Sequence record: NC_073086.1
Reading direction: 5' to 3' (one strand)
DNA length: 45,204 nucleotides
Source of the DNA: Escherichia phage vB_EcoS_L-h 1M
The notes beneath the pieces were generated by a model. It saw only the letters and a list, made by a program, of their open reading frames with translations, had not been told where the DNA came from and did no database searches. The position numbers and the translations under genes are program-made. The first letter of the stretch is position 1; every line of letters begins with the position of its first letter. Shown here in pieces: positions 4,552-43,397 of the stretch.

Positions 4552-5337
4552 TTAACGGCGGCGACGTTTACGTGGTGCTTCGTCTTCGTCGTCTTCGTCC
4601 TCATCTTCGTCATCGCGTGGCTTACGACGTTTACGAGGTTTCTCATCTTCGTCGTCTTCGTCGTCATCGCGGCGCTTGGACTTTTTGGACTTGCGCGGCT
4701 TGTCGTCCTCATCATCGTCATCACGACGTTTTGACTTCTTAGCCTTGCGCGGGCTTTCGTCTTCGTCGTCGTTGTCCAGGTCTTCGTCGGAACATGAAGA
4801 CCCGCCACCTCCGAAGGCTTCGCCGTCTTCACGGAATCGCAGACCCAGCAAGCCCGCCCCGAGTCCCTTGCCGTTGGTATTGTTCCACGCCCAAATATCA
4901 AGTGACACGTTGCAATAACAACCGGAGTAGATCTCCTGGCCTTCGATCTCGTCGCCTTCTACGGTCAGACCTTGTTCAGTCTGCTTCTCGCCGAGTGACG
5001 TTTGAATGATAGGCTGTTTGAACGATTTGGCGTTGATATACAACATGCCTTCGAATTCTTCGGTAACTTCATCGCGCTCGTCGCCGTCGCGAACTGCACA
5101 TTCCTTAGAATCCTGGGCGTAGTGGCGGTCCATCCACTTATCGGCATTCTTCTCAGATTTCAGCTTGTCGGTGAGCACTGCACGCGCTGCCGCTTCCACT
5201 TTGTCCACCTGCGGATCTTCTTTATCAAGAAGAATCACGGCACGGTATGCCGGTTTTTGTCCATCCTGTTTAGGGGTATCACGTTCCCAAATTTTCAGGA
5301 AGCATACGCGCACATTTTTCAGGTTGACTTTAGCCAT
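4552..5337 (-). CDS. ssDNA-binding-like protein (DUF2815-type) with alternating acidic/basic C-terminal repeats
   Basis: N-terminus 'MAKVNLKNVRVCF'; start ATG 5335-5337 (rc) with GAGGA RBS; C-terminal (D/E)n-PRK-(K/R)n repeated 4x. Confidence 0.55.
   Translation of the reverse strand: MAKVNLKNVRVCFLKIWERDTPKQDGQKPAYRAVILLDKEDPQVDKVEAAARAVLTDKLKSEKNADKWMDRHYAQDSKECAVRDGDERDEVTEEFEGMLYINAKSFKQPIIQTSLGEKQTEQGLTVEGDEIEGQEIYSGCYCNVSLDIWAWNNTNGKGLGAGLLGLRFREDGEAFGGGGSSCSDEDLDNDDEDESPRKAKKSKRRDDDDEDDKPRKSKKSKRRDDDEDDEDEKPRKRRKPRDDEDEDEDDEDEAPRKRRRR
4560..4800. repeat. degenerate ~60-bp tandem repeats encoding charged tail of SSB-like protein
   Basis: repeated CGTCTTCGTCnTCATC...GCGnGGCTT units; protein level acidic block + PRK + basic block x4. 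Confidence 0.45.
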
Positions 5338-5427
5338 TTTCCAATTCCTCATTTTCACATGTATCGGGGTTATTGTGAGCCACCCCGTCCGGCTTGGTTG
5401 CTAATCTACTTGGTTGCGCCTGAGNGG

Positions 5428-5670
5428 TCAAGCGTTTTTATTAAAAAGATTTCGTGTCACGTAGTTGGTGGCGTTCTCGATCCAGCTTAACGGCGGGCGG
5501 TCGATGTTCTTCGCGATCCACGCCACGGCATGGTCGCTGTAACCATCGTCCAGCCATTGGGTTGGATGACGAATCATCCAGGCCACCATTAAGACGCCTT
5601 GCACGCAATGCAGGATAAAGCCCAGCGCGCCGAGCAAAAACATCAATAAGATTGCGAATACTTTATTCAT
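5428..5670 (-). CDS. small membrane protein
   Basis: 80 aa, N-terminal hydrophobic helix 'VFAILLMFLLGALGFILHCV'; AGGA RBS. Confidence 0.4.
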   Translation of the reverse strand: MNKVFAILLMFLLGALGFILHCVQGVLMVAWMIRHPTQWLDDGYSDHAVAWIAKNIDRPPLSWIENATNYVTRNLFNKNA

Positions 5671-7093
5671 TGCTTAAGTCCTCGTCAGTAGCTACAGACC
5701 ACGCAGGGCGCGGGTCGTCGATGGGTGCTAATACCGGTTTAGCGGGTGCGCGCGTGATTTTATCACACAACTTTGCCCACACTTTCGGCTTCTCGTCCTT
5801 CAATACCTTCTCGGCATCAGTAGGGCTGAGTAATGTTTCTTTGTACATCACGTCGCGCTTGATCCGGGCCTTCGTGAAGATCTCAATCACTTCGCTCTCG
5901 TCCGCCCACTTGCGGATTCCTTCCTTACCGGCAACCATCTTGAGGCCCAGCGATTCGCCATCACCCGCCATTACGGCCTTGAACACCGCGGACTCGATAG
6001 CCTTGATGTGCTGGCGCATTGCGTCAAGACCTTCATAAGCCTTGCGNAGTTCCNCCNCGCNCANAGCGCNGGGGGNCGCTTNTTTNTTNCCCCNCTTCNC
6101 NCGNNGNGCCGCTTTGNGGGCTTNGNGGGCCATATTGNGGTCGTGATTGGCGCATTCTTCCTCTGTCGAAATACTCACGTCGTCGCCCAGGTCTTCGTCT
6201 GTTGCCGTTGGTGGGGCCATAGTGTCGATTGCAGCCTTAGCGCGGGCGCTACACTGATCCGCAAATCTGCACCATTGACACGCATCAACGCTCGGTCGGA
6301 AGTCGGCACGGGTGAGTCCCTTTTTGCCGCGGTCGTACGCTTCCAGGGCGGCGATAGCACGCTTGGACGCAAACTTCGCGAATATCTCCAGGGCTTCTAC
6401 CGAAATATCCCACTCCGACGCCCCGCCGCAATACGGCTGGAAGATAACCAGGCGCACGGTCGTAATGTCGTACATAGTTTTCAGCTTGCGCAGCAGGCCC
6501 AGCGCATACAACATAAGCTGTTTGTTTTCTTTCGCCTCGACCTTATGCCGCCCCGTCTTCAGGTCGCCAACAATCAGCATGTACGTGCCGTCGGTCTTCT
6601 TCATGACCATGACCATATCCGCAGTGCCGAACGTCTTAACCCGGTTGCCGTCGATCTCGAAGCCAGAGTGTAGGACGCGGGTAAGATCGGCGCGCATCTC
6701 AAGCTGAACAAACTCCGCCACTTCGAGGAGCGGTCGCCAGTGGTCGATGTATGCGTCGCACTGTTTCACCATGTCGTCGTTGACCAGCACGCCGCCTTTC
6801 GGTGCTTTCGGGTGCGCCTTCACCGGCCCCTTACCTTCGTTCTCGACGTAACACCCTTTGTACGTCTTCGCGGTTATCAGCTTTTCACCGGCGATAATGC
6901 GGTTGAGCACGACTTCAGATACAGTGTGCATACTCGTACCGTTAATCGCCGCTTGCCCGGATTCGTTCGGGATACCTTGTTCTACCACCAGGGCGGCTGG
7001 GCAACCCATCCATTTTTTAGCACCGGATGGGCCGAGTAATGAATGCTCCGTGTTGCTACCGGATTGCGTTTTACGTTTTGGTTTAATCGCCAT
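5663..7093 (-). CDS. PD-(D/E)XK Cas4-like exonuclease (DUF2800-type)
   Basis: 'GTADMVMV...GDLKTGRH' nuclease motifs, C-terminal Cys cluster 'CQWCRFADQC'; N-run 6047-6130 inside. Confidence 0.6.
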   Translation of the reverse strand: MAIKPKRKTQSGSNTEHSLLGPSGAKKWMGCPAALVVEQGIPNESGQAAINGTSMHTVSEVVLNRIIAGEKLITAKTYKGCYVENEGKGPVKAHPKAPKGGVLVNDDMVKQCDAYIDHWRPLLEVAEFVQLEMRADLTRVLHSGFEIDGNRVKTFGTADMVMVMKKTDGTYMLIVGDLKTGRHKVEAKENKQLMLYALGLLRKLKTMYDITTVRLVIFQPYCGGASEWDISVEALEIFAKFASKRAIAALEAYDRGKKGLTRADFRPSVDACQWCRFADQCSARAKAAIDTMAPPTATDEDLGDDVSISTEEECANHDXNMAXXAXKAXXXXKXXXKXAXPXAXXXXEXRKAYEGLDAMRQHIKAIESAVFKAVMAGDGESLGLKMVAGKEGIRKWADESEVIEIFTKARIKRDVMYKETLLSPTDAEKVLKDEKPKVWAKLCDKITRAPAKPVLAPIDDPRPAWSVATDEDLSNE

Positions 7094-8621: not shown

Positions 8622-8951
8622 ATGAATATCAAAGAAGCAATTGAAGTGTTATCTAATGCAATCCGCGGCGAAGCGGGTAAATCCTGGTATTACACAAANG
8701 NGGNGGATACTCTGTTATTTGAAGTGTCCAGATTATCGCGTGCTGAGAAGGAGCTTACCGCGAAGCTGGAACTACTCAATGGTACGGCAGCCAGCAAGCT
8801 GCAAAAGCACAATGAAGAAATGGAAGAANACAAAAAGCAGGTTATCCGTTTGCGCGACGAAGGGAAATCATGGGCGATGATTGCAGAGCTAACCGGAATT
8901 AATCAGAGCACCGTGCGATCCTGGGTACGCAATAATAAAACCTCTAAGTAA
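8622..8951 (+). CDS. HTH DNA-binding regulator
   Basis: C-terminal HTH 'SWAMIAELTGINQSTVRSWVRN'; first gene after TTGACA-N17-TAGTTT promoter. Confidence 0.6.
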   Translation: MNIKEAIEVLSNAIRGEAGKSWYYTXXXDTLLFEVSRLSRAEKELTAKLELLNGTAASKLQKHNEEMEEXKKQVIRLRDEGKSWAMIAELTGINQSTVRSWVRNNKTSK

Positions 8952-8961
8952 GGCAACGGCA

Positions 8962-11226
8962 ATGAGCTTAATTAAATTCGCAGTAACACGACCCGCTAAA
9001 AAAGGNGAAAAAGCCAGGGCGGAAAACTTCCAGATGACTACCGATGAGTTTTTCGAATTTATCAACGATGCGAAAGAAATCTCCTCGGTGCATATCAACA
9101 AGACGGAAGATAAAGCGGAGTATGCGCGCCGCAAGCGTAAGGCCGATGGCATTGTGGCTTATACCAGTGATGGGCTGCGCCGCAAGACCAGTGCCGTGGA
9201 TCGCTCGATCCTGTTCTTCGATATTGACCGTACCGACACCCGCACCTTGCGCCGCTGCCGTAAGGCGTTCATCGACGCGGGTCTTGAACACGTATTTCAC
9301 ACCACCACCGGCGACCGCCACCCGCTGAAGGGCGGCACGCGTTGCGCCCGTTTCCTGGTGCTAACGGATAAGCCCGTACCGGCGGAAGACCTGGGCCGCG
9401 TACAGTATGCACTATTACACCAACTCGGCCTGTCAGATGTGGACTTCGATGATTGCACGAAAGACACAAACCGCCTTATGTACCTGCCTCACCAGCAATC
9501 GGTTGTTAAGTGTCACTACGGCAAACGTGCCCGCGTCCGTCGTCTGATTCGCCTGGCGGATAAGCTGGGAGTGGAAAAAGAGGAAGTACGCCGCGAATTA
9601 ACCCAGGGCGATGACGGCGTGGCGGACGGCATTCTGGATTGGTGCTTCCAGGCAGGATTCGAACCGCTGTCGTCCGGTCGTGGTTATGAAGTGCCGTGCC
9701 CGAACGAACACCTGCACAGTGGTGAAGGGTCCACCGCTATCATGGTCAAGGATGGCGAGATCCGTTTCAAGTGTATGCACACTGGCAACGAGTGTTGCTC
9801 GGAACTGAACAGACACCAGCACCTGGCGCTACGTCTTATCGGGATACCGGACCACCTGAACGTCGAACCACACAACATGTCTCGTAAGCAAATCGCCGCC
9901 ATTCTCCCCGGACTGGACGACGAGGAAGTGGAATCGTGCTATGCGCATATAGTTGATGCGGTCGGTGACGGCGACGAGTACGGCGTATGTACCGACGCGG
10001 ACCTGGATAACGAACCGGTCGCACTGTTCAGTAAGCACGACCCGATCATCGAGGGGTTGATTAACTTCAAATCGACCTGGTATATGGCTGGCGAATCGAA
10101 CATCGGTAAATCGTTCTACGTGCTGGGCCAAATGGGTGCGGTTGCCGCGGGGATTCCGTTCGGAGGTGCGAAGGTCGTCCAGTCTCATTGCTTCTATTTC
10201 GACGCGGAAGGTGGTGAAGCCTCCAACCAGCGTAAGGAAGCATTGCAGATCAAATATGAGCACGACCTGGACAAGCTGCACATTATCGATCTGCAATCAC
10301 GCGGCTGGGATATCACCAGCAAATCCGGCTTGCGTGAAGTTATCAGCTTCATCAACCGCACCGCTAACGGCGAACCGGTTGGCCTGGTGGCCTTCGACTC
10401 CCTCAACCAGACTGTTGCGTTGCGGTCCGCCGATGCTAAACCGTTCGACGAGAACAACGCCAGCGATATGGGTGAAGTGGTCAAAGCGCNGAAGGCCATT
10501 GNGGAAAANACCGGNGGNNGNGNTGGNGTCANCCNCCNCCCGGNGAAGGGNGCAAACGGCAGCAGANCCCCCCNCGGGNCCGGCGCGCNGCATGGTGCTG
10601 TTGATTCTGCGTTCTTCCTTGAGCAACCGGACGACAACCAGCCGGGCCAGTTGAACCTGTATCACGAAAAGGCACGTAACGGCATCAAGCAAGCGCCGCG
10701 CGGCTTCGTCCTGCTCAAGTGCAAGGTTAAGGTGGATCTCCGCAAGTCCGAAGCGTTCGAAGCCCACCAGTCCACCAGCACCGGGCCGGACTTTGGCGAC
10801 GTCGTTGCCGGTTGGGACGTCAAGCCAATTGCCTCCACGCCACGCGACGAGACTCTTTACCTCGTACCGGTCGCCCTGGCACCGTTCGCTATTGAGCAGG
10901 CGAAGGCCGCGGGCAAAGCAGCCGTTAAGGAAGAAAACGCCGCAGGACCGCGCAACGAGAAAGAGAAAGTGCTTTATGCGGCACTGGAAAAACTGATGGA
11001 AGATAACCCGGACCATACCGGATTCAGTAAATCGGCAATTGTCCGCCAGGCTGGGCTTGCGAAAGGGGGCACATCGACGAAGGCAATAGACGATATGGTG
11101 GAGCGCGGCGTGCTAGGTTTTTATACAGATCCGCACACTGGGGCCATCTATGGGTCGTCGAATATCGTCATCAAAACAAATATACCCATCACGCTTTCGG
11201 CGACCGATGATGATTTAAAAGATTAA
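8962..11226 (+). CDS. DNA primase/helicase (primase-like N-terminus, zinc-binding region, P-loop NTPase)
   Basis: 754 aa; Walker A 'GESNIGKS'; Cys/His cluster 'CPNEHLHSGEG...CMHTGNECC'; N-run 10490-10590. Confidence 0.65.
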   Translation: MSLIKFAVTRPAKKXEKARAENFQMTTDEFFEFINDAKEISSVHINKTEDKAEYARRKRKADGIVAYTSDGLRRKTSAVDRSILFFDIDRTDTRTLRRCRKAFIDAGLEHVFHTTTGDRHPLKGGTRCARFLVLTDKPVPAEDLGRVQYALLHQLGLSDVDFDDCTKDTNRLMYLPHQQSVVKCHYGKRARVRRLIRLADKLGVEKEEVRRELTQGDDGVADGILDWCFQAGFEPLSSGRGYEVPCPNEHLHSGEGSTAIMVKDGEIRFKCMHTGNECCSELNRHQHLALRLIGIPDHLNVEPHNMSRKQIAAILPGLDDEEVESCYAHIVDAVGDGDEYGVCTDADLDNEPVALFSKHDPIIEGLINFKSTWYMAGESNIGKSFYVLGQMGAVAAGIPFGGAKVVQSHCFYFDAEGGEASNQRKEALQIKYEHDLDKLHIIDLQSRGWDITSKSGLREVISFINRTANGEPVGLVAFDSLNQTVALRSADAKPFDENNASDMGEVVKAXKAIXEXTXXXXXVXXXPXKXANGSRXPXGXGAXHGAVDSAFFLEQPDDNQPGQLNLYHEKARNGIKQAPRGFVLLKCKVKVDLRKSEAFEAHQSTSTGPDFGDVVAGWDVKPIASTPRDETLYLVPVALAPFAIEQAKAAGKAAVKEENAAGPRNEKEKVLYAALEKLMEDNPDHTGFSKSAIVRQAGLAKGGTSTKAIDDMVERGVLGFYTDPHTGAIYGSSNIVIKTNIPITLSATDDDLKD

Positions 11227-13826: not shown

Positions 13827-14068
13827 TTATCTCCGTCCTGTTGTTTGTTATCATAGGGGCTTCGTCCCTGTTTAACGTGTATGCGCCGTCCGTCCAGGAT
13901 GGCATTTTAGGCCGGGTGTTATATCTGCTAACGGCGATGATCTGCGTTATCGGATTGTTGCAAACGGGAGACGTATCAGACACCACCTGGACCGCGTTAA
14001 TCTGGCTGTTTGCATTGCGCACGCTGCGTAATGCTGTTTTGAATGGGGTAAAACATGCGATTCAGTGA
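13823..14068 (+). CDS. membrane protein (holin/antiholin-like)
   Basis: 81 aa, hydrophobic helices, overlaps start of endolysin gene. Confidence 0.45.
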   Translation: MIISVLLFVIIGASSLFNVYAPSVQDGILGRVLYLLTAMICVIGLLQTGDVSDTTWTALIWLFALRTLRNAVLNGVKHAIQ

Positions 14069-14546
14069 CAACGGTCTACGATTTACGGCAGCATGGGAGA
14101 CGTTCAGCCCGATGCCGTATTTCGCGACTAAGAAAGAGCAGGCCCGCGGCCTGTACACCTGGGGTTATGGTCACACCGGAACTAACCCGCCTCGAAGCAT
14201 TACCCGCGCGGAAGCGCTGGAGCTACTCAAGCGTGACGTGGCGTATGCTGAGAACTGGGTGAACAAGTACGCACATCCGAGCATCAACCAGGCGCAATTC
14301 GACGCGCTGGTGGACCTGGTAATCAATGCGGGTCAGGGTCCGATCGTACCGGACCATATCGCTAATGACTTCGATGATGCAGTGCGACTGGGCGACTGGG
14401 CGAAGGTCCGTGCTACTCTGCCGCAGTTCCGCAAGCAAGGCGGGGAAGTGCTTAAGGGTCTGGTCCGTCGAGCAATCGGCAGACAAGCGCTATTCGATGG
14501 TAAGCAGTGGGACGTTGCCGAGAAGATCGGACGTAACGCAGCATAA
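14055..14546 (+). CDS. endolysin, lysozyme (GH24, P22 gp19/T4 lysozyme type)
   Basis: 'SDNGLRFTAAWE...GLYTWGYGHTG...INQAQFDALVDLVINAG' matches lysozyme catalytic region. Confidence 0.7.
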   Translation: MRFSDNGLRFTAAWETFSPMPYFATKKEQARGLYTWGYGHTGTNPPRSITRAEALELLKRDVAYAENWVNKYAHPSINQAQFDALVDLVINAGQGPIVPDHIANDFDDAVRLGDWAKVRATLPQFRKQGGEVLKGLVRRAIGRQALFDGKQWDVAEKIGRNAA

Positions 14547-14562
14547 TACGGGGTAACACAGT

Positions 14563-14964
14563 ATGTTAGATTCGATCTTGCGACGTAAAGAACGCATTAT
14601 CAAGACACTGCCCGCAGTGCAGAACCCAGAAGCGCGCCGCATCCTGGCGGGCGATATGAATATTTCAGGAGTCTTTGACAAGGCGGTGCCTGAAGGGACG
14701 CCGGTGGCGAGCGCTACCGTTACCATCACGCCAGCTACCGCCGCAGTTGGTGAGACAGCCGCCGCGACTGTTGCCATCCTGCCATCCGGCGCTACCAACA
14801 AGGCCGGGTCGTGGGTGTCTGCTAACCCTAACCGCGCCTCAATCAATCCGACTACCGGCGAAATCACCGCGAAAGCTGCGGGTAACGTCCGCATCGTTTG
14901 GGTGGCGTCAGACGGTAGCGGGGTGCAGGCTGACGCAGGCTTCACAGTAACGGCAGCAGAGTAA
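14563..14964 (+). CDS. Ig-like (Big_2-type) domain protein
   Basis: C-terminal 'ATVTITPATAAVGETAAATVAILPSGATNK...VRIVWVASDGSGVQADAGFTVTA' resembles bacterial Ig-like domain; terminator downstream. Confidence 0.45.
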   Translation: MLDSILRRKERIIKTLPAVQNPEARRILAGDMNISGVFDKAVPEGTPVASATVTITPATAAVGETAAATVAILPSGATNKAGSWVSANPNRASINPTTGEITAKAAGNVRIVWVASDGSGVQADAGFTVTAAE

Positions 14965-14970
14965 TTTAAC

Positions 14971-14997
14971 AAGCCCGGTTAATTCCGGGCTTTTTAT
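14971..14997 (+). terminator. rho-independent terminator
   Basis: stem AGCCCGG / CCGGGCT, loop TTAATT, then TTTTTATT. Confidence 0.6.
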
Positions 14998-15201
14998 TGC
15001 TTGACTTGCAACCAACATAGACGCCATACTGCGACCAATCAACGAGAGGAGTAGTAACTATGGCACGTAATGATATTTGGGTTTTGGCGATCTGGACCAC
15101 CGCAGCATTCATTGGCATGGTTATTTGCGAATTGCTATAACCCGCCACAATAGGGACCGTGGTATATTGTCCTCGGTCCCATAATCAGGAATGGATTAAA
15201 T

Positions 15202-16344
15202 ATGCACCCGCAAACTAAAATCACCGACGAGCAATTGATCGCCGAGTTGCAATCCGGCACTACCGCGAAAGAGATTGCGAAGAAGTACGGTCTTTCCCTC
15301 CGAAATGTCTACATGCGAAAAGCCCGCCTGTCGAAGAAAGGTATTGGTCACGGTAACGATGCCGTAATCCGTAAGCGCGTTGCCGATGGCTTCGGCGTTA
15401 AGCGTGTCTCCGCCCTGGTGCGCGGAAATGGCGAAGAGGTCATGTCGTGGGTTATCACTGAGCAGGACAAGGAGCGCCAGCTTGAGGCAATGCGCGCCGT
15501 TGTCGAGGGTATGAACAGCGAAATCAAACCGGCAGCACCCGTAAGCGCCCCGCCGGTCCCGATCCATGCGCTCGACCTACTCAACCTGTACACCGTGTCC
15601 GACTTCCACCTGGGCATGTTGGCCTGGGGCGAGGAGACTGGCGAAGACTGGGATATGGCGATTGCCGAAGACCTGTTCTACCGCTGGTTTGTCGAAGCCT
15701 TCGCACGCGCACCGGACGCAGGCACTGCCGTAATTAATATCCTCGGTGATATGGCCCACTTTGATAGCCTCGATGCCGTCACTCCCGCCAGCGGTCACGT
15801 ACTGGACGCGGATACCCGCTACCAGAAACTGGTCCGATACATGATTCGCATGGTGCGCAACGTGGTAGACCTGGCGCTGCAGAAACACCACAAAGTCAAA
15901 CTGCTAATCGTCCAGGGGAATCATGACGAGTCGGGCATGATTTGGCTGGCTGAAATGTTCCATACTCTGTACGAGAACGAGCCACGCGTCGATGTGGATA
16001 CGTCCCCGGACGTATACAAAATGGTGCAGCACGGCAAGACCACGCTGTTCTTCCACCACGGGCACAAAGCGCGCTTCGATGCCATCGAAACCGTCATGAT
16101 TTCAAAATTCAGACAGGCTTTCGGGTCCAGCGAGTACAGCTACGCGCATGTAGGCCACTTGCACCACCAGAAGATTGTAGAATCCCGCAACATGATTGTT
16201 GAACAACACCGGACCCTCGCAGCGAAAGACGCATATGCCAGCCGCGGCGGTTGGATGTCCGGTCGTAGTGCCAACGTAATCACCTATAGCGCCAACTACG
16301 GCGAAGTAGCGCGCCTGACCATTAGCCCGGAAATGTTGAAATGA
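15202..16344 (+). CDS. HTH domain fused to calcineurin-like metallophosphoesterase
   Basis: N-terminal HTH 'TAKEIAKKYGLSLRNVYMRKARL'; phosphoesterase motifs 'DFHLG','GDMAHFD','GNHDE','HHGH','GHLHH'. Confidence 0.65.
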   Translation: MHPQTKITDEQLIAELQSGTTAKEIAKKYGLSLRNVYMRKARLSKKGIGHGNDAVIRKRVADGFGVKRVSALVRGNGEEVMSWVITEQDKERQLEAMRAVVEGMNSEIKPAAPVSAPPVPIHALDLLNLYTVSDFHLGMLAWGEETGEDWDMAIAEDLFYRWFVEAFARAPDAGTAVINILGDMAHFDSLDAVTPASGHVLDADTRYQKLVRYMIRMVRNVVDLALQKHHKVKLLIVQGNHDESGMIWLAEMFHTLYENEPRVDVDTSPDVYKMVQHGKTTLFFHHGHKARFDAIETVMISKFRQAFGSSEYSYAHVGHLHHQKIVESRNMIVEQHRTLAAKDAYASRGGWMSGRSANVITYSANYGEVARLTISPEMLK

Positions 16345-16553
16345 TTAGACAAGTATTCATGAGCACGCAGGCGGACCGCCTGAAGGAACTACGCAAACAA
16401 CTGGAAGGATTGCGCCGATTCGAACGAACGGCAGCGGCAATCGGCATGTCTATCAGCGAGCGGATCGAGATACTATCGCAAATACGCTACACAGAAGGCG
16501 CTATACGCGAAGTAGAAAGCATGTTAACCCGATACTACGGTCGCGCCGTTTAA
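16341..16553 (+). CDS. hypothetical protein
   Basis: ORF track; overlaps upstream stop; followed by terminator. Confidence 0.35.
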   Translation: MIRQVFMSTQADRLKELRKQLEGLRRFERTAAAIGMSISERIEILSQIRYTEGAIREVESMLTRYYGRAV

Positions 16554-16560
16554 CCCTCCT

Positions 16561-16587
16561 AGCCCGCCGATTTGGTGGGCTTTTTTG
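16561..16587 (+). terminator. rho-independent terminator
   Basis: imperfect stem AGCCCGCC / GGTGGGCT followed by T6. Confidence 0.45.
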
Positions 16588-16591
16588 TGCC

Positions 16592-16600
16592 TGTTATAAT
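16592..16600 (+). promoter_or_regulatory. extended -10 promoter candidate upstream of terminase genes
   Basis: TGTTATAAT directly after terminator 16561-16587. Confidence 0.35.
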
Positions 16601-16670
16601 CCCCCTTAGATGGCAGGGCCGTCTCCTATGTTGCCGATGGTCGGCGCATATGCACAAAAGGGCTTATATC

Positions 16671-17222
16671 ATGGCAGAAATCAAAGTTAAGGGCCGTCGC
16701 GCTAAACTGGACGGACGAGTAGCAGTTACCCCGCGCCGTAAACCAGGCGAGCAAACAGAACATACCAATCTCGGGCCGGAGATCGAATACGGCAAGCGCC
16801 GCAGAGGTGGCAAATGTGGACGCCCTACCGACTACCGTTCCGTGTATTGTGACCAACTTCGACGCTATTTCGCCGATGCCGTAGCCTGGCAAGTTAACTA
16901 CTCCGACAAGGGTGCTGCGCAAGTAATTCCCCGCAACATGATGCCTACCTTTGGTCGCTTCGCCGCAAAGATTGGCGTAGGCGTCGCATGCCTTTATCGC
17001 TGGGCGCGCGCACATGAGGAGTTCGCCGAGGCAATGGCTGACGCTATGGAGCTACAGAAAACCTTCCTGATGGAAGCTGGCGGCGTGACCATCGCGGCGG
17101 GCTTCGCTACCTTCCTGCTTAAAGCCAACCACGGCGTCCGGGACGATGTACCGCTGGATGACGACGAAGATGATAACGGCGACGTCGTTGTGGAACCTAC
17201 CGGCAAAGGTCAGGGTGATTAA
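16671..17222 (+). CDS. terminase small subunit (putative)
   Basis: ATG 16671 with AAAGGG RBS; HTH-like 'FGRFAAKIGVGVACLYRWARAHEEF'; acidic C-terminus; directly upstream of large terminase. Confidence 0.5.
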   Translation: MAEIKVKGRRAKLDGRVAVTPRRKPGEQTEHTNLGPEIEYGKRRRGGKCGRPTDYRSVYCDQLRRYFADAVAWQVNYSDKGAAQVIPRNMMPTFGRFAAKIGVGVACLYRWARAHEEFAEAMADAMELQKTFLMEAGGVTIAAGFATFLLKANHGVRDDVPLDDDEDDNGDVVVEPTGKGQGD

Positions 17223-18607
17223 TGCGTAACTATGCGGCAGAACATCGCGCCCTTGAACGAGCGATCGCAAAGCGAAACAGACCGCCGCGCCCGACACGCG
17301 TTGCGCAGGCCGTCCGCCTTTACCAGCCTGATTGCCTTCCGCACCAGGTGGAACTACTGCGCGACACGAAGACTAAAATCATCGGCCTGTGTTCCGGCTT
17401 CGGTGGCGGTAAGTCATGGGTCGCGGCGAGAAAGGTCATCCAGCTTTTAACACTAAACCCCGGTCATGATGGCATCGTAACAGAACCGACTATTCCCCTC
17501 CTGGTTAAAATCATGTACCCGGAATTGGAAAAGGCATTCGACGAGGCGGGCTTCAGGTGGAAGTTTAACAAGCAGGACAAGATTTATAGCGTGCTGGTGA
17601 AAGGCAAGTGGACGCGCGTAATCTGTGAGTCAATGGAAAACTACACCCGCCTAATCGGGGTCAACGCCGCGTGGATTGTTGCCGATGAGTTCGATACCAC
17701 GAAACAAGACGTCGCAATGGCGGCTTACCACAAATTGCTTGGTCGTCTGCGTGCTGGCTTGGTGCGCCAGTTCGTCATCGTGTCCACGCCTGAAGGCTTC
17801 CGGGCGATGTATCAGATTTTCGAAGTGGAGAAGGATAGCCAAAAACGTTTGATCCGGGCGAAGACTACCGATAATCACCACTTACCGGCAGACTTTATCG
17901 ACACTCTGCGCAGCCAGTACCCTGCTAACCTGATTGATGCGTACCTGAACGGTATGTTTGTCAACCTTACGTCGGGCGCGGTATACAAGATGTTCAATCG
18001 TGAGGAGAACGCCAGCACCGAAGAAGTGCAGCCGGAAGACACGCTGATTATCGGGATGGACTTTAACGTCACGAAAATGGCGGCGGTCGTGTACGTCAGA
18101 CGGCAGCGCATCACCGAAAACAAGGAGTTCCGCGACGAGATTCACGCAGTGGATGAATTCGTGGACCTGTTCGATACCCCGGCTATGATTGAGGCGATCG
18201 AGGAGCGCTACCCCGATCATTGTGCTGCCGGTCGGGTCGTCGTTTACCCGGATAGCAGTGGCAAGTCTCGTAAGACTGTTAACGCATCGTCGTCCGATAT
18301 AGCGCAACTGGAAGACGCAGGCTTCGAGGTGGAATACGACAGCGTTAACCCACCTGTGAAAGACCGATTGATCGCGATGAATACGATGATGTGCAACTCG
18401 AAGGGCGTGCGCCAGTATTTTGTCAACCTGGATAAATGCCCTACACTAGCGAAATGTCTGGAACAGCAGGTTTACGACCTGAAGAAAGGCGAGCCGGATA
18501 AAACCGCCGGTGTGGACCACATGAACGATGCCGCGGGTTATCCAATTGCGCACCTGTTCCCAGTGATTCGTCCGATCGCCGTTGTTCCAACTGTAGACTT
18601 CTACTAA
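17222..18607 (+). CDS. terminase large subunit
   Basis: 461 aa; Walker A 'GFGGGKS', Walker B 'WIVADEFD'; position before portal. Confidence 0.85.
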   Translation: MRNYAAEHRALERAIAKRNRPPRPTRVAQAVRLYQPDCLPHQVELLRDTKTKIIGLCSGFGGGKSWVAARKVIQLLTLNPGHDGIVTEPTIPLLVKIMYPELEKAFDEAGFRWKFNKQDKIYSVLVKGKWTRVICESMENYTRLIGVNAAWIVADEFDTTKQDVAMAAYHKLLGRLRAGLVRQFVIVSTPEGFRAMYQIFEVEKDSQKRLIRAKTTDNHHLPADFIDTLRSQYPANLIDAYLNGMFVNLTSGAVYKMFNREENASTEEVQPEDTLIIGMDFNVTKMAAVVYVRRQRITENKEFRDEIHAVDEFVDLFDTPAMIEAIEERYPDHCAAGRVVVYPDSSGKSRKTVNASSSDIAQLEDAGFEVEYDSVNPPVKDRLIAMNTMMCNSKGVRQYFVNLDKCPTLAKCLEQQVYDLKKGEPDKTAGVDHMNDAAGYPIAHLFPVIRPIAVVPTVDFY

Positions 18608-18618
18608 GGAAACCGACC

Positions 18619-20139
18619 ATGACCGTTAACGTTGACAACCAGCACCCGCTCTATGCGCGCATCGCGCCCGAGTGGAAAATGATCCGTGACTGTGTAGCGG
18701 GGGAGCGCGCCGTTAAGGCGTGCGGCCCCTTATACCTGCCACACCCAGCCAGTGGCGACAACACTGACCCGAAATCACGGGCGCGGTATAAGGCGTACAA
18801 GCAACGCGCTGTATTCCTGAACGCCACCGCCCGCACACTTAACGCGCTGTTAGGCGTTGCCTTTGCTAAACCGGTGAGTCTTGACCTTTCCGGGGCGATG
18901 GCTGACCTGATTGACGACGTAGACGGCAGCGGTATGCCGCTGCCGCAACTCCTGCGCGGTGCTATGTCTGAAGTTCTGCAATCAGGCCGTGCGGGCTTTA
19001 TGGTCGACTACGACCGTCAGGCGCATTTTGATGAACTGGGTAACGTAGTGCCGCAGACAGCCGCCGAGATGGCGTCACACCGCCCGCTTATCCGCCTGTA
19101 CACGGCAGAACAGATCATCAACTGGCGGCAGACCCACGGCGTCGATACGCTAATTGTGCTGAAGGAAACGGACGAAATCAGCACTGAAGACCCGGACGAC
19201 TTCGCAAACCACGAAGTAACAATCTGGACCGAGCTTCGCATGATTAACGGTGCAGCACACGCCCGCCGCTGGTACTACAACGCCGACACGTCCGAGGTGC
19301 AAATGGACTTGCCGCGTGGATTCACCCGCACCGACCTGGTGCCGCTGGTGGATGCTACCGGTAAGGCGCTGACACAACTTCCGTTTTGCTGGTGTGGCGC
19401 GGTGGACAACAACGCAACGCCAGACGCCGCTCCGCTGGCAGATATCGCATCCATCAACATTAAGCACTACAACGCCGAAGCGGACGTCGCCGAGATTGCG
19501 CACATCGTGGGCCAACCTACCCTGGTAGCAACTGGCTTGACTCAATCATGGGCGGACAAAAACCTGAAAGGCGGCATCGCGCTCGGAGCGACTAAGGGCG
19601 TTATTCTGGGTCAGAACATGGACGCTAAACTGATTCAGGCCGAGGAGCGCAACTTGTCGGTCGCACTGTGTGAGCGACGCGAATTGCAAATGGCTAAACT
19701 TGGCGCGGCCCTGGTCGAGAAGGGGACCGCACCTAAGACGGCAACCGAGGCGGCCTATGATGCGCAGACTGATAACAGTATCCTGTCGCTTATTGCCGGT
19801 AACGTTGAGAAGGCTTTCAACCGCGCGTTGCAAATTGTCCAACTATTCACGGGCGACACCGCCGACCAGCGCGTAACGCTGAATAAGTTCTACACAGAAA
19901 TCACGGTTGATGCGCAGCTTATGACCGCGATGATGTCGGGTGTGCAGACTGGCACGGTCCGCCTGGCGGATTTCATCAAGTGGATGATGGCGCAGGGCGT
20001 CATCGACGACTCGCAAACCGTCGAGCAGGTGGAAGACGAATTGCGAAATCAGAATCCATTGCCTCAAATGTCCCCCGATGCGGTAGAATCTACCGAAGAA
20101 GACCCGGACAAGGTAGCGGACAATGGCGAAGACAATTAA
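18619..20139 (+). CDS. portal protein
   Basis: 506 aa, immediately after large terminase, acidic C-terminus. Confidence 0.7.
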   Translation: MTVNVDNQHPLYARIAPEWKMIRDCVAGERAVKACGPLYLPHPASGDNTDPKSRARYKAYKQRAVFLNATARTLNALLGVAFAKPVSLDLSGAMADLIDDVDGSGMPLPQLLRGAMSEVLQSGRAGFMVDYDRQAHFDELGNVVPQTAAEMASHRPLIRLYTAEQIINWRQTHGVDTLIVLKETDEISTEDPDDFANHEVTIWTELRMINGAAHARRWYYNADTSEVQMDLPRGFTRTDLVPLVDATGKALTQLPFCWCGAVDNNATPDAAPLADIASINIKHYNAEADVAEIAHIVGQPTLVATGLTQSWADKNLKGGIALGATKGVILGQNMDAKLIQAEERNLSVALCERRELQMAKLGAALVEKGTAPKTATEAAYDAQTDNSILSLIAGNVEKAFNRALQIVQLFTGDTADQRVTLNKFYTEITVDAQLMTAMMSGVQTGTVRLADFIKWMMAQGVIDDSQTVEQVEDELRNQNPLPQMSPDAVESTEEDPDKVADNGEDN

Positions 20140-27006: not shown

Positions 27007-27683
27007 ATGGCTAAAGCACCACTCTTCACACTTGACCCTAAGCCAACCTTTAAGCTGCCGATTGAGATCCCGCGCCCTGGTGAGAACGAACCCGGCAANA
27101 TGACTTTTACCGTCCGCCACCGCCCGATCGACGAGTTTTCGCAGACCATGCAGGACACTGAACGAAAGCTATCGGAATATGACGACAATGACCCGGACGG
27201 CTTTAACGTTATGGTCGAGGCCATCATGCACGTCGCAGAAGGCTGGAATCTGCCGGACGAATTTAACGCGGAGAACGTCCGCCGCCTGGTGGTCAACTAT
27301 CCACGCGCGTTCGGTGTGTTCCACACGTCGTACTATCTCGAACTGATGGGGTTGNGNGAAAAAAACNAATTGAGGNGGCGCGNCGCTTTTNTGGCCCNCC
27401 NCCNCCCTCCGAAGATTGACCCGCAAGTTTATGGGGTGCGGCCCCCGAAGATGTTTGTCCGCCTGTTGCACTATGGCCCGACAACGCGAAGATACTCGCA
27501 GTCTTCACAGATTGCTCCACGCAATGGCGCACCGGATTTGGTGGCGCATACGGCATCGACTACGGCGTGCTGGAGTGGTTATTTAAGATGCACGGTATCG
27601 AAAACGAGCAGCGCGCGTTTAAAGATATCAAGCCGATGGAACGAATCGCGCTTGATGAGATGACGCAGCAGAACCCAGCATAG
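27007..27683 (+). CDS. tail assembly chaperone with C-terminal domain in -1 frame (G/GT-like)
   Basis: N-domain in frame of ATG 27007; slippery heptamer A_AAA_AAC 27360-27366; protein-like C-domain in -1 frame 27420-27683; N-run 27355-27411 between. Confidence 0.5.
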
Positions 27684-28409: not shown

Positions 28410-29519
28410 CACCGCGTCATGCTTCAGCAGTTACCGCAGCTAACTGGGGCGTTCGGCGGACTGGGTAACACGCTGCGTTTTGTTGCGGGCTTCCTCGGCC
28501 CAGTAGGGGTCGGCCTTGCCGCCGTAACGGCAACGTTAGGCGTGGGCGTGGCAATTACGTCCCNCNNGGAGAACNANANCCCCCCGCTTAACAAGACGCT
28601 GGCACTTTCCGGTAACATTTCCGGCCTGACGGCAAACCAGATCCTGGTGCTATCTGAGAACGCCGAGCGCATGGGCGGGTCGTTCCGCAAGACGCGTGAC
28701 ACAATCCAGGCGCTGGCGGCGGCGGGTGTGAAAGCGGGTGGTGACTTCGGCGCACTGGCGAAAGTGGTGAATGACTTTGCGAAGGTGTCCAGCATGGCAG
28801 ATCAGGCAGCGGGCATCACGCTCAAGGCGGACGTCGCGCAAATTAAAACGGCTAATACTGTGCTGGACACATTCGCGCAGAAATCCGAGAACACAGAACA
28901 GAAAGTAAAGAAATTAAACGACACACTCGGCAAGTCGAAAAAGGTTACTGGCGACGCCGCGGGCGGAATGGAAAAGTTAGCGACTGAATCGCAGCGCGCC
29001 GCCGACGGCATGACGAAACAGGAGCGACTAGCCAGCCGATTAGGCATGTCGACCAAAAACCTGGGATTTGCTTCACGGAACGCGGCATTCCAGTTACAGG
29101 ATATTGCGGTAACGCTTGAGATGGGTATGCCGGTGCACCGCGTCATGCTTCAGCAGTTACCACAGCTAACCGGCGCATTCGGCGGATTAGGTAACACGCT
29201 GCGTTATGTTGCGGGCTTCCTCGGCCCAGTAGGGATCGGACTTGCGGCAGTAACGGCGACATTAGGCGTGGGCGTGGCAATCACGTCACGGGCAGAGAAC
29301 CAGGTAGCCGCGCTTAATAAGACGCTGGCGCTGTCCGGTAATATTTCAGGCCTCACAGCTAACCAGATCCTTGTGCTGTCCGAGAACGCTGAGCGCATGG
29401 GCGGGTCATTTCGCAAGACGCGTGACACAATCCAGGCGCTGGCGGCGGCGGGTGTGAAAGCGGGTGGTGACTTCGGCGCATTGGCTAAGGTAGTTAATGA
29501 CTTTGCGAAGGTGTCCAGC
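28068..29519 (+). repeat. 726-bp in-frame tandem duplication at 5' end of tape measure gene
   Basis: 28068-28793 vs 28794-29519, both begin ATGGCAGATCA; ~90% identical, mostly synonymous. Confidence 0.75.
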
Positions 29520-41238: not shown

Positions 41239-41730
41239 TTATTTAAGTGCGCTGCGTACCAATTTCTTTTCCATGTTACGGAAATCTTCCTGCGTCATGC
41301 AGATTTTCGATCCGTCCTCGCCAGTTAGCAGGACCATAGGCTGCACATCTTGCGCTACAACCCCAAAATCGCGGGCATTCACCGTCTTGCCCGCGGAAGA
41401 ATGCCCGCCTTTTAGGCTGTCGAATTGTGCTGCCGTTGTATCGATCTGAATCTCGTCATGCACGGTCATGTAAGACTCGCCCAGCAGGGCGGCATACGCC
41501 ACCAGATCCACGATGTTATCTTCCTGGTGCTTACGGTGCTGGCGCACCAGCTTCAGGCAGATCAGGAAGGTCCAGGCTTCTTGCTCGGTAAGGTCGCGCC
41601 CGGTAAGCGCGTTAAACACGGCGGCGACCTGTTTAGCGCTGCGTTCTTCTTTCGCGTTGTCATAGCCGTTTTCTTTCCCGCGCTGTTCCATAGTGGTGGC
41701 GGCGTTTTTGCAGTATTCGTATGCTTTCAC
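41239..41730 (-). CDS. hypothetical protein
   Basis: 163 aa; GTG start with AAGGG RBS. Confidence 0.4.
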   Translation of the reverse strand: MKAYEYCKNAATTMEQRGKENGYDNAKEERSAKQVAAVFNALTGRDLTEQEAWTFLICLKLVRQHRKHQEDNIVDLVAYAALLGESYMTVHDEIQIDTTAAQFDSLKGGHSSAGKTVNARDFGVVAQDVQPMVLLTGEDGSKICMTQEDFRNMEKKLVRSALK

Positions 41731-41784
41731 AGTATTACCCTTTTTAGTGAGGGGGCTTTATTGCCCCCGACACGTTTAATATAG

Positions 41785-41806
41785 TGCAACCAACCTATTG
41801 GTTGCA
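41785..41806. promoter_or_regulatory. palindromic operator-like site TGCAACCAA-N3-ATTGGTTGCA
   Basis: inverted half-sites of the recurring motif; overlaps stop codon of 41795..42265. Confidence 0.45.
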
Positions 41807-42265
41807 AGTGAATTTTGCAACGTTTATTGCGTAAATTTTCGGGACCAAATCACCACACGCCCGACGAATTGCCGCGATGTTCTTCTCGCAATCTTCAATG
41901 ATGACCAGTTCCGACACGTCCGCATAGCAGACCATTTTGAACACGGCGCACGCCTTAAACTCTGGCGGCGGGGTGTCGTCCAGCATGTGGCGCATAAACA
42001 ACCGGCCTACCGGGAAGACCTCCAATTGCTCGGCGGTGGTGTCCCAGCATTCTCGCTGCCGGTTGGTCAGATACGCGATCTCGAAGCCTCGCTCTTTGTA
42101 CATGCGCAGCAACGGCAGCATATCCATATTCAGGTCTTCGCGTACGTGCGCCTTGTGCCACTTCGCCCAAAAGGTGGATTTAGTTTTTATACCAGGCACC
42201 AGGTCGGCGCGCGCATCGCTTGAACCGTTAATAACTCCATCCAAATCGCAAATCAGTAATTTCAT
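41795..42265 (-). CDS. HAD-superfamily phosphatase (nucleotidase-like)
   Basis: N-terminal 'MKLLICDLDGVI' HAD motif I. Confidence 0.6.
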   Translation of the reverse strand: MKLLICDLDGVINGSSDARADLVPGIKTKSTFWAKWHKAHVREDLNMDMLPLLRMYKERGFEIAYLTNRQRECWDTTAEQLEVFPVGRLFMRHMLDDTPPPEFKACAVFKMVCYADVSELVIIEDCEKNIAAIRRACGDLVPKIYAINVAKFTCNQ

Positions 42266-42486
42266 TTTAGGCTCTCAATAAGGGTGGCTCGGGCGCTACG
42301 CGCGGTGTAAGAGTTGCACACGAAATGACAACGTCGGGTCATGACAAGCCAACCGGTGAGGTCAAGGCCCAGGATGTATTCGGGGCGAGACGCGCGCACC
42401 ACACGATCGCGGCGTGGGTCGATGTTATAGTCTTTTTGCATTTGGTCTACGACCGCGTGGTCGCGGTCAACGATTAAGATATTCAC
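42262..42486 (-). CDS. hypothetical protein
   Basis: ORF track, GTG start, overlaps neighbours. Confidence 0.3.
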   Translation of the reverse strand: MNILIVDRDHAVVDQMQKDYNIDPRRDRVVRASRPEYILGLDLTGWLVMTRRCHFVCNSYTARSARATLIESLK

Positions 42487-42952
42487 GTAGTTCTCCTTCG
42501 CTCATTATTTCAATTTGTGCGCTGCCGATGGGCGGCGCTTCGTCAAAGATTATCAATTGCTGGCACTTGTTATTGCTCGGCCCGACTTCACCGGTTACAG
42601 CATGTATGAATCGGATCCGCCAGTCCAGAAGAATTATCAGGTTTGCAGTCTTCCGGGCCAGCTTCGCCCACTTAGTCGACGTGTCCTGATTCAGTAGCAT
42701 GACGGTCCGGCGTCCGTGCGCTGCGCACTCGACCCACGGCAGCGGATCGGAATACGGCGGATTGCACCACTTCCACCCTTTCAACTCCGACCAGTCCGCA
42801 TCGAGCGCGCTGTGCTCTGCCGTGAAGTAACGCGGCAGCAGGTGGTTTGCGTCGCTCGCCGCCATATCGTAACGGAATCGGTACTTCCGGCGCAGTGGTT
42901 TAAATAAAGCTGGCGGTGTGCGCCAGCTATCTTTTTGCTCATTCTCCGTCAT
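42467..42952 (-). CDS. dam: DNA N6-adenine methyltransferase (phage Dam family)
   Basis: 'WRTPPALFKPL...FRYDMAASDANHL...WKWCNPPYSDPLPW' matches phage Dam-family motifs incl. NPPY. Confidence 0.75.
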   Translation of the reverse strand: MTENEQKDSWRTPPALFKPLRRKYRFRYDMAASDANHLLPRYFTAEHSALDADWSELKGWKWCNPPYSDPLPWVECAAHGRRTVMLLNQDTSTKWAKLARKTANLIILLDWRIRFIHAVTGEVGPSNNKCQQLIIFDEAPPIGSAQIEIMSEGELREYLNR

Positions 42953-43397
42953 AGTCTGGATCTATCGCATACAGGGCGGTTTTCTTGCCGCTAGACAGCA
43001 CACGTTGGACTCGGGATATCTCCGCCCTACTGAGCGGTCTGCTATCGGAATAGTAGCTGCCGTTTGCACGCCACGCTATACGCACCAGTCCTTCCCGCGG
43101 GATCGAAGACTGGCGGCCTTTGGGGCGCACGTACTCCTCCGCGCGTTTACAATGCTCCCGCAGACCGTCGGCAGTGATGCGGTTTAGCGCCACGCTGGTT
43201 GTGTATCCGGTGCGCTGCATAATACCCATCAACTCATACAGCAGATCGAAGCGCTCCTCTAATTCCTTGCGCGCCTTCTCCTCGCCTTCATAGCTCGCCA
43301 GGTAGGTGTCCGCCAGCGCGTTCGCGCGTTCGGCCTGTTCGCGGGCTTCGAGGCATTGCGCGGCCCAGTAATTTTTTTCTTCTTGTAAAATTTTCAT
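42939..43397 (-). CDS. hypothetical protein (coiled-coil N-terminus)
   Basis: ORF track; ATG 43395-43397 (rc). Confidence 0.4.
   Translation of the reverse strand: MKILQEEKNYWAAQCLEAREQAERANALADTYLASYEGEEKARKELEERFDLLYELMGIMQRTGYTTSVALNRITADGLREHCKRAEEYVRPKGRQSSIPREGLVRIAWRANGSYYSDSRPLSRAEISRVQRVLSSGKKTALYAIDPDYDGE

Follow-up and report, generated by a model that had tools for sequence, protein, structure and literature searches.

The calcineurin-like metallophosphoesterase (MPE) superfamily, which is defined by an alpha/beta sandwich fold and the five motifs DxH, GD, GNH(D/E), H and GHxH, contains the described enzymes closest to the protein studied here, a 380-residue product encoded at positions 15202-16344 (+) of a 45,204-nucleotide stretch of Escherichia phage vB_EcoS_L-h 1M (NC_073086.1; the whole stretch is called the window). 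In this superfamily, Mre11/SbcD nucleases have a C-terminal capping domain and a Rad50/SbcC partner; DP1, the small subunit of archaeal PolD and a 3'-5' proofreading exonuclease, carries an OB fold and works as a polymerase subunit; and PdeM cuts DNA as a stand-alone MPE, with no need of a Rad50 partner. Class III cyclic nucleotide monophosphate (cNMP) phosphodiesterases and GpdQ have no His at +3 in motif II, which in protein phosphatases of the lambda-phosphatase (PPP) type reads GDxxDRG. The only phage-encoded MPE with a published function that we found in the literature is Gp48 of mycobacteriophage A10ZJ24, which has the five motifs and phosphodiesterase activity and is described as damaging host genomic DNA, thereby disabling host defence expression; no helix-turn-helix (HTH) is mentioned in the sections of that report that were consulted (PMC12287305).

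The phage protein consists of an N-terminal HTH, a beta-hairpin module and an MPE domain, and has DxHLG and GDxxH (His at +3) in common with Mre11/SbcD (T. maritima Mre11, 3qg5 and 2q8u; S. aureus SbcD, 7dog; E. coli SbcD, 6s6v). Identity to these proteins is 13-18% (E about 0.1), and the phage protein ends with the MPE core at residue 380, without the capping domain, having the HTH and beta-hairpin instead. Identity to DP1 (5ihe) is 11-13%. No DNA polymerase gene is annotated in T1-like phages, and that of Dhillonvirus encodes a Pol I-type enzyme. PdeM and the Pseudomonas 'Nuclease MPE' (6nvo; TIGR04123) gave weak, non-significant matches near motif III (E 1.4; E 0.17); PdeM, unlike the phage protein, is much shorter (~216 residues) and has no HTH. 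Class III cNMP phosphodiesterases (CpdA/Icc, M. tuberculosis Rv0805) and GpdQ, which also have no HTH, ranked below the nucleases in fold comparisons. Gp48 belongs to another phage and host lineage and is compared with the present family through its published description.

We favour, with moderate confidence, the interpretation that the gene encodes a stand-alone Mre11/SbcD-like DNA nuclease tethered to DNA and acting in phage or host DNA metabolism. This interpretation is supported by the Mre11-like motifs I and II, by a fold ranking that leans to nucleases, by the family-wide HTH, and by the DNA- and nucleotide-metabolism genes found next to homologues in phages Era103, VAP7, 115E34-1 and FZ10 and in Drexlerviridae. 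Mycobacteriophage Gp48 offers the nearest experimental precedent for it.

An HTH fused to an intact metallophosphoesterase domain

The open reading frame (ORF) remains open for 380 codons without internal stops, and its product matches the profile of PHROG 704, 'DNA repair exonuclease', over the full length (E 5.7e-161; residues 5-380 on profile positions 2-390 of 390). This is the family of phage T1 gp16 (ST16, YP_003929.1), of which the 380-residue protein is a member with no structural difference; the family name is a bioinformatic label. Compared with the record of phage vB_EcoS_011D5 (MT478993.1), the gene has 128 nucleotide differences, and because 108 of them fall at third codon positions and only 13 residues are changed, strong purifying selection is indicated. 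The profile match and the third-position bias place the reality of the gene far beyond chance.

All five MPE motifs were said to be intact in the original prediction, and each was found at a defined place in the protein (Table 1), with key residues that are invariant across the family. Conservation was measured in two alignments, one of 63 and one of 140 members (33-81% identity). In these, D134, H136, G182, D183, T194, N240, H241, H286, G318 and H321 are invariant, and conservation reaches at least 90% at G77, W83, H186, H285, H288 and H319. Of 150 cluster representatives, 143 have GDxxH, and in most of the 138 representatives with both motifs locatable an N-terminal extension of ~110-170 residues precedes motif I. 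The protein is a member of a divergent calcineurin-like subfamily, having the five motifs and the alpha/beta sandwich fold of the superfamily and missing the PF00149 and PF12850 gathering cut-offs. Searching NCBIfam gave nothing significant for it. The matches obtained with phmmer against the PDB were designed repeat proteins aligned through residues 67-100, and were judged spurious.

The predicted N-terminal HTH fusion was also borne out, since Pfam matches of homologues, a GerE profile match and the AlphaFold helices agree. In the protein alone the Pfam matches are sub-threshold (HTH_28, E 0.01; GerE, E 0.013), but homologues match Sigma70_r4_2 (1.5e-9) and GerE (2.4e-8), as well as HTH_1 and HTH_28, and a family profile built from 63 sequences matches the GerE structure (E 0.008). 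AlphaFold prediction from the single sequence was unusable (predicted local distance difference test score, pLDDT, 41), and a confident AlphaFold2 model from the 63-sequence alignment was used instead (pLDDT 91.3; predicted template modelling score 0.79). It comprises three HTH helices at residues 9-45 (mean pLDDT 92-95 per 10-residue block over residues 11-40), a beta-hairpin and helix at 64-106, a Pro/Ala-rich linker and an MPE core at ~124-380, with nothing thereafter. In the model the HTH is tri-helical with a basic recognition helix, the isoelectric point (pI) of residues 8-46 being 10.0, and it is predicted to bind DNA. The HTH-hairpin-MPE architecture is common to the sampled full-length members of PHROG 704; longer family members have a second HTH added and no other enzyme domain.

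Searching known folds with the model gave the highest scores to nucleases, namely the PolD DP1 proofreading exonuclease (16.0), Mre11 (14.7) and SbcD (14.5). Scores were 13.8 for MJ0936, 13.6 for the Pol delta B-subunit, 13.5 for LpxH, 12.2 for the cNMP phosphodiesterase Rv0805, 12.1 for GpdQ and at most 9.4 for PPP protein phosphatases. Foldseek agreed in placing nucleases above cNMP phosphodiesterases. When the MPE-domain profile was compared with solved structures, only T. maritima Mre11/SbcD was reached, at a marginal E of 0.09-0.2; in this alignment the tDlHlg and GDllH of the family fall on the SDWHLG and GDLLH of T. maritima Mre11. The structural comparison that had been proposed with the original prediction thus leans to nucleases, Mre11/SbcD included, over cNMP phosphodiesterases and PPP phosphatases, and on its own leaves the substrate unsettled.

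A persistent phage gene in varying surroundings

The family was detected by tblastn in 2,054 of 50,697 phage records (~4%), with at least 80% coverage in 1,699. Taking the first word of each record's organism name, the commonest genus words were Escherichia, Klebsiella, Salmonella, Vibrio, Campylobacter, Shigella, Flavobacterium, Rhodobacter, Yersinia and Ruegeria. A word-indexed search returned 3,729 clusters at 90% identity, with source names including 'metallophosphoesterase', 'winged helix-turn-helix domain-containing protein' and 'DNA repair exonuclease', and an exhaustive search of metagenomic representatives at 50% identity returned 4,665 at E <= 1e-3, 1,140 of them at E <= 1e-30. Homologues 42-99% identical occur in Dhillonvirus, Jersey- and Kaguna-like phages, Drexlerviridae, Webervirus and Era103, and homologues of ~32-37% identity in Vibrio phages. 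The original prediction had taken the gene for a non-standard one; instead, gene and family are already catalogued and named in GenBank, PHROGs and pVOG, and the family gene is persistent in 508 of 522 Drexlerviridae genomes (PMC13164509). The same ORF is annotated 'putative phosphoesterase' in the 011D5 record (QMP82801.1), and some depositors label the family protein 'transcriptional regulator'. The MPE gene is thus an ordinary, widespread and annotated phage gene, and its architecture differs from that of canonical Mre11/SbcD. The T1 gp16 family is among the commonest phage genes without a tested function, with no threshold-reaching Pfam or NCBIfam model and no solved structure, and the family-bearing groups examined (Dhillonvirus, Jersey-like and Weber-like Klebsiella phages) include therapeutic candidates. 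In BFVD the range of phage MPEs is wider, and many of them bear the automatic label 'DNA polymerase II small subunit'. One is a protein of Lactobacillus phage LfeInf; an LfeInf protein is presented in a 2026 preprint as a fusion resembling Mre11-Rad50, and it may be the same protein, although the identifiers in the two sources differ.

Gene context was compared in nine sampled phage groups and in the published Drexlerviridae census. In the window the order is holins, endolysin, an ORF with an Ig domain, the MPE unit, TerS and TerL, and the MPE gene lies just upstream of TerS/TerL in all Dhillonviruses examined. The adjacency to terminase genes noted in the original prediction is therefore real in this phage, with a 70-residue ORF and a terminator-like hairpin intervening, but it is confined to Dhillonvirus. 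In T1 (gene 16) and other Drexlerviridae the MPE gene stands immediately 5' of the lysis cassette, in T1 ~32 kb from TerS in the linear record. In the Jersey-like phage KE06 and in SHAK7693 it forms an opposite-strand island within the tail module, after a small ORF with two transmembrane segments; SHAK7693 is deposited under Kayfunavirus and has the same siphovirus-type tail-module neighbours as KE06. In podovirus Era103 it is found between an endonuclease gene and genes for a HAD_PNKP 3'-phosphatase, a P-loop kinase and DNA ligase; in Ackermannvirus VAP7 beside primase; in Vibrio phage 115E34-1 beside an OB-fold protein; and in Webervirus FZ10 after helicase, VRR-NUC and methylase genes and before a deoxynucleoside monophosphate (dNMP) kinase gene. 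Genes for polynucleotide kinase or dNMP kinase are its commonest immediate followers in Drexlerviridae (PMC13164509). Because the neighbours differ outside Dhillonvirus, the terminase neighbourhood, which the original prediction had pointed out, carries no functional meaning. The MPE gene behaves as a persistent gene and not as a sporadic accessory gene, and no partner gene conserved across the family was found in the sampled phage groups.

Elsewhere, the window encodes a PHROG 415 HAD phosphatase (41795-42262, -), a DUF2800 / PD-(D/E)XK exonuclease and a gp2.5-like single-stranded DNA-binding protein. The HAD gene lies in the region 41239-43397 (-); its product falls in PHROG 415 like T1 p64 and Era103 gp27 and has a weak Pfam HAD match. 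The latter two are called 'polynucleotide kinase', although they match a HAD 3'-phosphatase domain (HAD_PNKP) and no kinase domain. P-loop 'dNMP kinase-like' proteins (T1 p62, Era103 gp28) are encoded next to the HAD gene or one HNH gene away (T1 locus 4948-6534; Era103 locus 5175-6250), and the HAD phosphatase and P-loop protein might represent a Pnk split in two, or else a pair serving nucleotide salvage. A 151-residue protein encoded at 42939-43394 belongs to a PHROG labelled 'DNA ligase' and has no Pfam match.

A nuclease reading and its rivals

We infer that the substrate is DNA. The MPE domain would be a phosphodiesterase that uses two metals (probably Mn2+) and belongs to the Mre11/SbcD-like branch of nucleases, and the basic N-terminal HTH would keep the enzyme on double-stranded DNA. 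The two metals would be bound by D134, H136, D183, N240, H286, H319 and H321, and H186 (motif II) and H241 (motif III) would assist in placing the scissile phosphate and in stabilising the transition state. Cleavage might be exo- and/or endonucleolytic, the HTH and beta-hairpin module supplying the DNA grip in place of the capping domain and the Rad50/SbcC partner. Such an enzyme may serve in host chromosome breakdown that feeds nucleotide salvage, or in the trimming of ends, hairpins, or replication or recombination intermediates. If the protein proves to be such an enzyme, the automatic label 'DNA repair exonuclease' would gain a clear meaning, and T1-like phages might be found to have here an enzyme so far missing from their host-DNA breakdown or intermediate processing. 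The triggering or evasion of defences that sense DNA damage or degradation products could then also be explained.

Several observations weigh against this interpretation. Sequence similarity to Mre11 is marginal, and both the capping domain and the Rad50 partner are absent: a Rad50/SbcC-like ATPase is annotated neither in this phage nor in Bas15, and ORFs of at least 400 residues are all otherwise assigned, although not every ORF was searched with profiles. Pfam scores remain below the cut-offs (Metallophos_2, 22.7 bits against 27; Metallophos, 19.8 against 21.5). The literature on T1 gp16 and on Dhillonvirus or Jersey-like phosphoesterases yielded no functional study of any family member. The HTH could be used in gene regulation rather than substrate binding, and the kinase and phosphatase neighbours in relatives fit nucleotide or end-healing chemistry equally well.

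A more specific version, which we hold to be rather unlikely, is that a Rad50-independent, HTH-guided nuclease with its own host-type promoter attacks the host chromosome, providing nucleotides, silencing defence genes and generating the breakdown products sensed by systems like Metis and PUA-Cal-HAD; a variant in which nucleotide immune signals are destroyed is less likely. The idea of defence-gene silencing is modelled on what is reported for mycobacteriophage Gp48. The Metis and PUA-Cal-HAD papers deal with T-even denA and not with the T1 gp16 family, and no defence escapers mapping to this family were found in the literature.

Among the three activities offered by the original prediction, nuclease is favoured by motifs, fold, HTH and context, while a protein phosphatase is disfavoured by motif II and fold rank; cNMP phosphodiesterases rank below the nucleases in a fold comparison that is not decisive. 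The context is also compatible with an end-healing or nucleotide-pool phosphoesterase that removes 2',3'-cyclic or 3'-phosphates or hydrolyses nucleotides together with a HAD-type 3'-phosphatase and a P-loop kinase, in tRNA or DNA nick repair or in nucleotide recycling, a role to which we give a small but real chance. For end healing, bacterial Pnkp relies on a domain of the MPE fold, but this phosphoesterase is of the lambda-phosphatase type, whereas the MPE domain studied here is closest to Mre11 and DP1. The Era103 gene order of MPE, HAD_PNKP phosphatase, P-loop kinase and ligase and the presence of a PHROG 415 HAD phosphatase in the window argue for end healing, as do the kinase genes that most often directly follow the MPE gene in Drexlerviridae (PMC13164509) and a host calcineurin-CE + HAD pair that acts on deoxynucleoside triphosphates (bioRxiv 10.64898/2026.01.15.699771). 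However, the HAD phosphatase gene is ~25 kb from the MPE gene in the window and ~35 kb in T1, and an HTH of the double-stranded-DNA type would be unexpected on a nucleotide or RNA-end enzyme. The HTH, being of the LuxR and sigma-70 region 4 type, would suit a protein that is primarily a transcription regulator, binding phage or host promoters, possibly its own, and in which the MPE domain is an accessory or sensing enzyme. Consistent with this are the annotation by some depositors, a unique inverted repeat overlapping a -10-like element just 5' of the gene, and the location of the gene in T1-like phages directly before the lysis cassette, the position of lambda Q. We nevertheless hold a regulator to be improbable: none of the catalytic residues varies over hundreds of clusters, implying that enzymatic activity is under selection; the repeat is neither kept among Dhillonviruses nor matched upstream of homologues in six other phage groups; and we know of no antiterminator or activator with an MPE fold.

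Degradation of host immune signals had been suggested in the original prediction, and a counter-defence phosphodiesterase acting on the nucleotide signals of CBASS, Pycsar, Thoeris or type III CRISPR would be in keeping with an autonomous transcription unit whose site differs between phages, including the opposite-strand tail-module island of Jersey-like phages. That suggestion gained no specific support and seems to us quite improbable. Both fold searches place cNMP phosphodiesterases below nucleases, a mechanism of this kind would leave the conserved HTH without a role, the gene is persistent and core-like whereas accessory genes tend to be sporadic, and it matched neither PADLOC nor any known anti-defence family. 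The known phage enzymes that degrade such signals also differ in fold, Acb1 being a 2H phosphoesterase and Apyc1 having a metallo-beta-lactamase (MBL) fold, and neither fold is among the listed fold-search matches. The location immediately upstream of TerS and TerL in Dhillonviruses brings to mind the HNH proteins encoded beside HK97-type terminases and hence a packaging-associated nuclease that aids terminase in concatemer cutting. This role was rejected as very improbable because the terminase link is specific to Dhillonvirus: even there a terminator-like hairpin separates the gene from TerS, and the gene is remote from TerS and near the lysis genes in T1, on the opposite strand inside the tail module in Jersey-like phages, and among replication genes in Era103 and VAP7. 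As for a Ser/Thr/Tyr protein phosphatase of the PPP type, the superfamily fold and the five general motifs are held in common, but motif II reads GDMAHFD and lacks GDxxDRG, the fold scores are low and the HTH would be unexplained, making this scarcely credible.

A proposed local transcription unit and neighbouring sequences

The sequence suggests that the MPE gene forms its own small unit, consisting of a putative promoter, a micro-ORF for a putative 26-residue membrane peptide, the MPE gene, a coupled 70-residue ORF and a terminator (Table 1). The first hairpin, nearly invariant in six Dhillonviruses with a one-base loop deletion in Bas15, corresponds to an annotated terminator in PTXU06 and WFI. 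Both hexamers of the promoter-like site are invariant in the same six phages; sites of this kind are no more numerous in the region than expected by chance. The micro-ORF is kept in all six with mostly synonymous or conservative changes, and a PHROG search with it gave no match. At its position, KE06 and SHAK7693 have an unrelated small ORF with two transmembrane segments, annotated 'superinfection immunity protein'. The region upstream of the MPE gene is 94% conserved among the six Dhillonviruses.

Table 1. Positions of the MPE gene, its domains and motifs, and flanking elements in the window
Feature	Position	Strand	Basis or remark
Terminator-like GC hairpin and T-run, end of lysis cassette / Ig-domain ORF	14971..14992	+	hairpin scan
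Putative sigma-70-like promoter, TTGACT-18 nt-CATACT	15001..15030	+	scan, 9/12 matches
26-residue hydrophobic micro-ORF MARNDIWVLAIWTTAAFIGMVICELL, own GAGGAG ribosome-binding site	15060..15140	+	sequence; unannotated
Imperfect inverted repeat around invariant TGGTATATT	15153..15180	+	~35 nt upstream of MPE start codon; unique in window
Coding sequence, 380-residue HTH-MPE	15202..16344	+	ORF translation, PHROG 704 (T1 gp16 family)
N-terminal HTH (LuxR/GerE, sigma-70 region 4-like; pI 10.0)	residues 8-46, 15223..15339	+	profiles, model
Beta-hairpin and helix module, near-invariant G77 and W83	residues 64-106, 15391..15519	+	alignments, model
MPE catalytic domain, no C-terminal capping domain	residues 124-380, 15571..16341	+	profiles, model
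Motif I DFHLG	residues 134-138, 15601..15615	+	D134, H136 invariant
Motif II GDMAHFD	residues 182-188, 15745..15765	+	G182, D183 invariant; H186 at least 90% conserved; GDxxH as in Mre11
Motif III GNHDE	residues 239-243, 15916..15930	+	N240, H241 invariant
Motif IV HHGH	residues 285-288, 16054..16065	+	H286 invariant
Motif V GHLHH	residues 318-322, 16153..16167	+	G318, H321 invariant
70-residue ORF (PHROG 20931, unknown function), predominantly charged	16341..16553	+	ATG overlaps MPE stop (ATGA)
Terminator-like hairpin and T-run, end of two-gene unit, before TerS	16561..16581	+	hairpin scan; annotated terminator in WFI
TerS	16650..17222		
TerL	17222..18607		

The invariant core of the inverted repeat, TGGTATATT, is an extended -10-like element (15160-15168, with the -10 itself at 15163-15168) kept in the six Dhillonviruses, and the surrounding stem is not kept in WFI or in the 011D5 record. 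This sequence could provide a second promoter, or else fold into an RNA hairpin. An autoregulatory operator was considered at this place and found unsupported, the stem not being maintained among Dhillonviruses and having no counterpart upstream of homologues elsewhere.

The overlap of 4 nucleotides between the MPE gene and the 70-residue ORF suggests translational coupling of the two, and the same overlap is annotated in PTXU06, WFI and AV129; the GenBank record starts the ORF later, at 16359. Its product is a possible partner or regulator of the MPE enzyme, and it is not homologous to the similarly placed 66-residue ORF of SHAK7693. In T1 (NC_005833, 8300-29700), rho-independent terminators are annotated after many late genes or short gene groups. 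Together with the hairpins flanking the MPE unit, these imply some mechanism of read-through or antitermination; to our knowledge no such factor is known for T1-like phages or Dhillonvirus.

A megablast search with positions 14000-19000 returned 157 phage records, almost all of Escherichia Dhillonvirus siphoviruses. Among them, MT478993.1 has 45,204 bp and coordinates identical to those of the window while being only ~91-94% identical in sequence; between 8000 and 25000, 1,081 of 17,001 positions differ (~6%) without insertions or deletions. The window also contains 78 N's, mostly in tight clusters inside genes (6047-6138, 10490-10589, 27355-27404 and 28564-28579), which may mark hypervariable or mosaic sites. 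The window has the look of a consensus that was built along a reference from a related or mixed phage population, and not of the deposited MT478993.1 sequence.

The ORF with an Ig-like (Big_2-type) domain, which encodes 133 residues (14563-14964, +), is oddly located directly after the endolysin gene. Its product has matches to PHROG 215, 'structural protein with Ig domain', as well as to the Ig domains found at the C-terminus of major tail proteins, and the ORF at its position is much shorter in Bas15 and AV129. Further upstream, the ORF at 8622-8951 (+) bears conflicting annotations, being a 'DNA recombination nuclease inhibitor' in MT478993.1 and matching PHROG 9366, 'transposase', with weak HTH-type matches.

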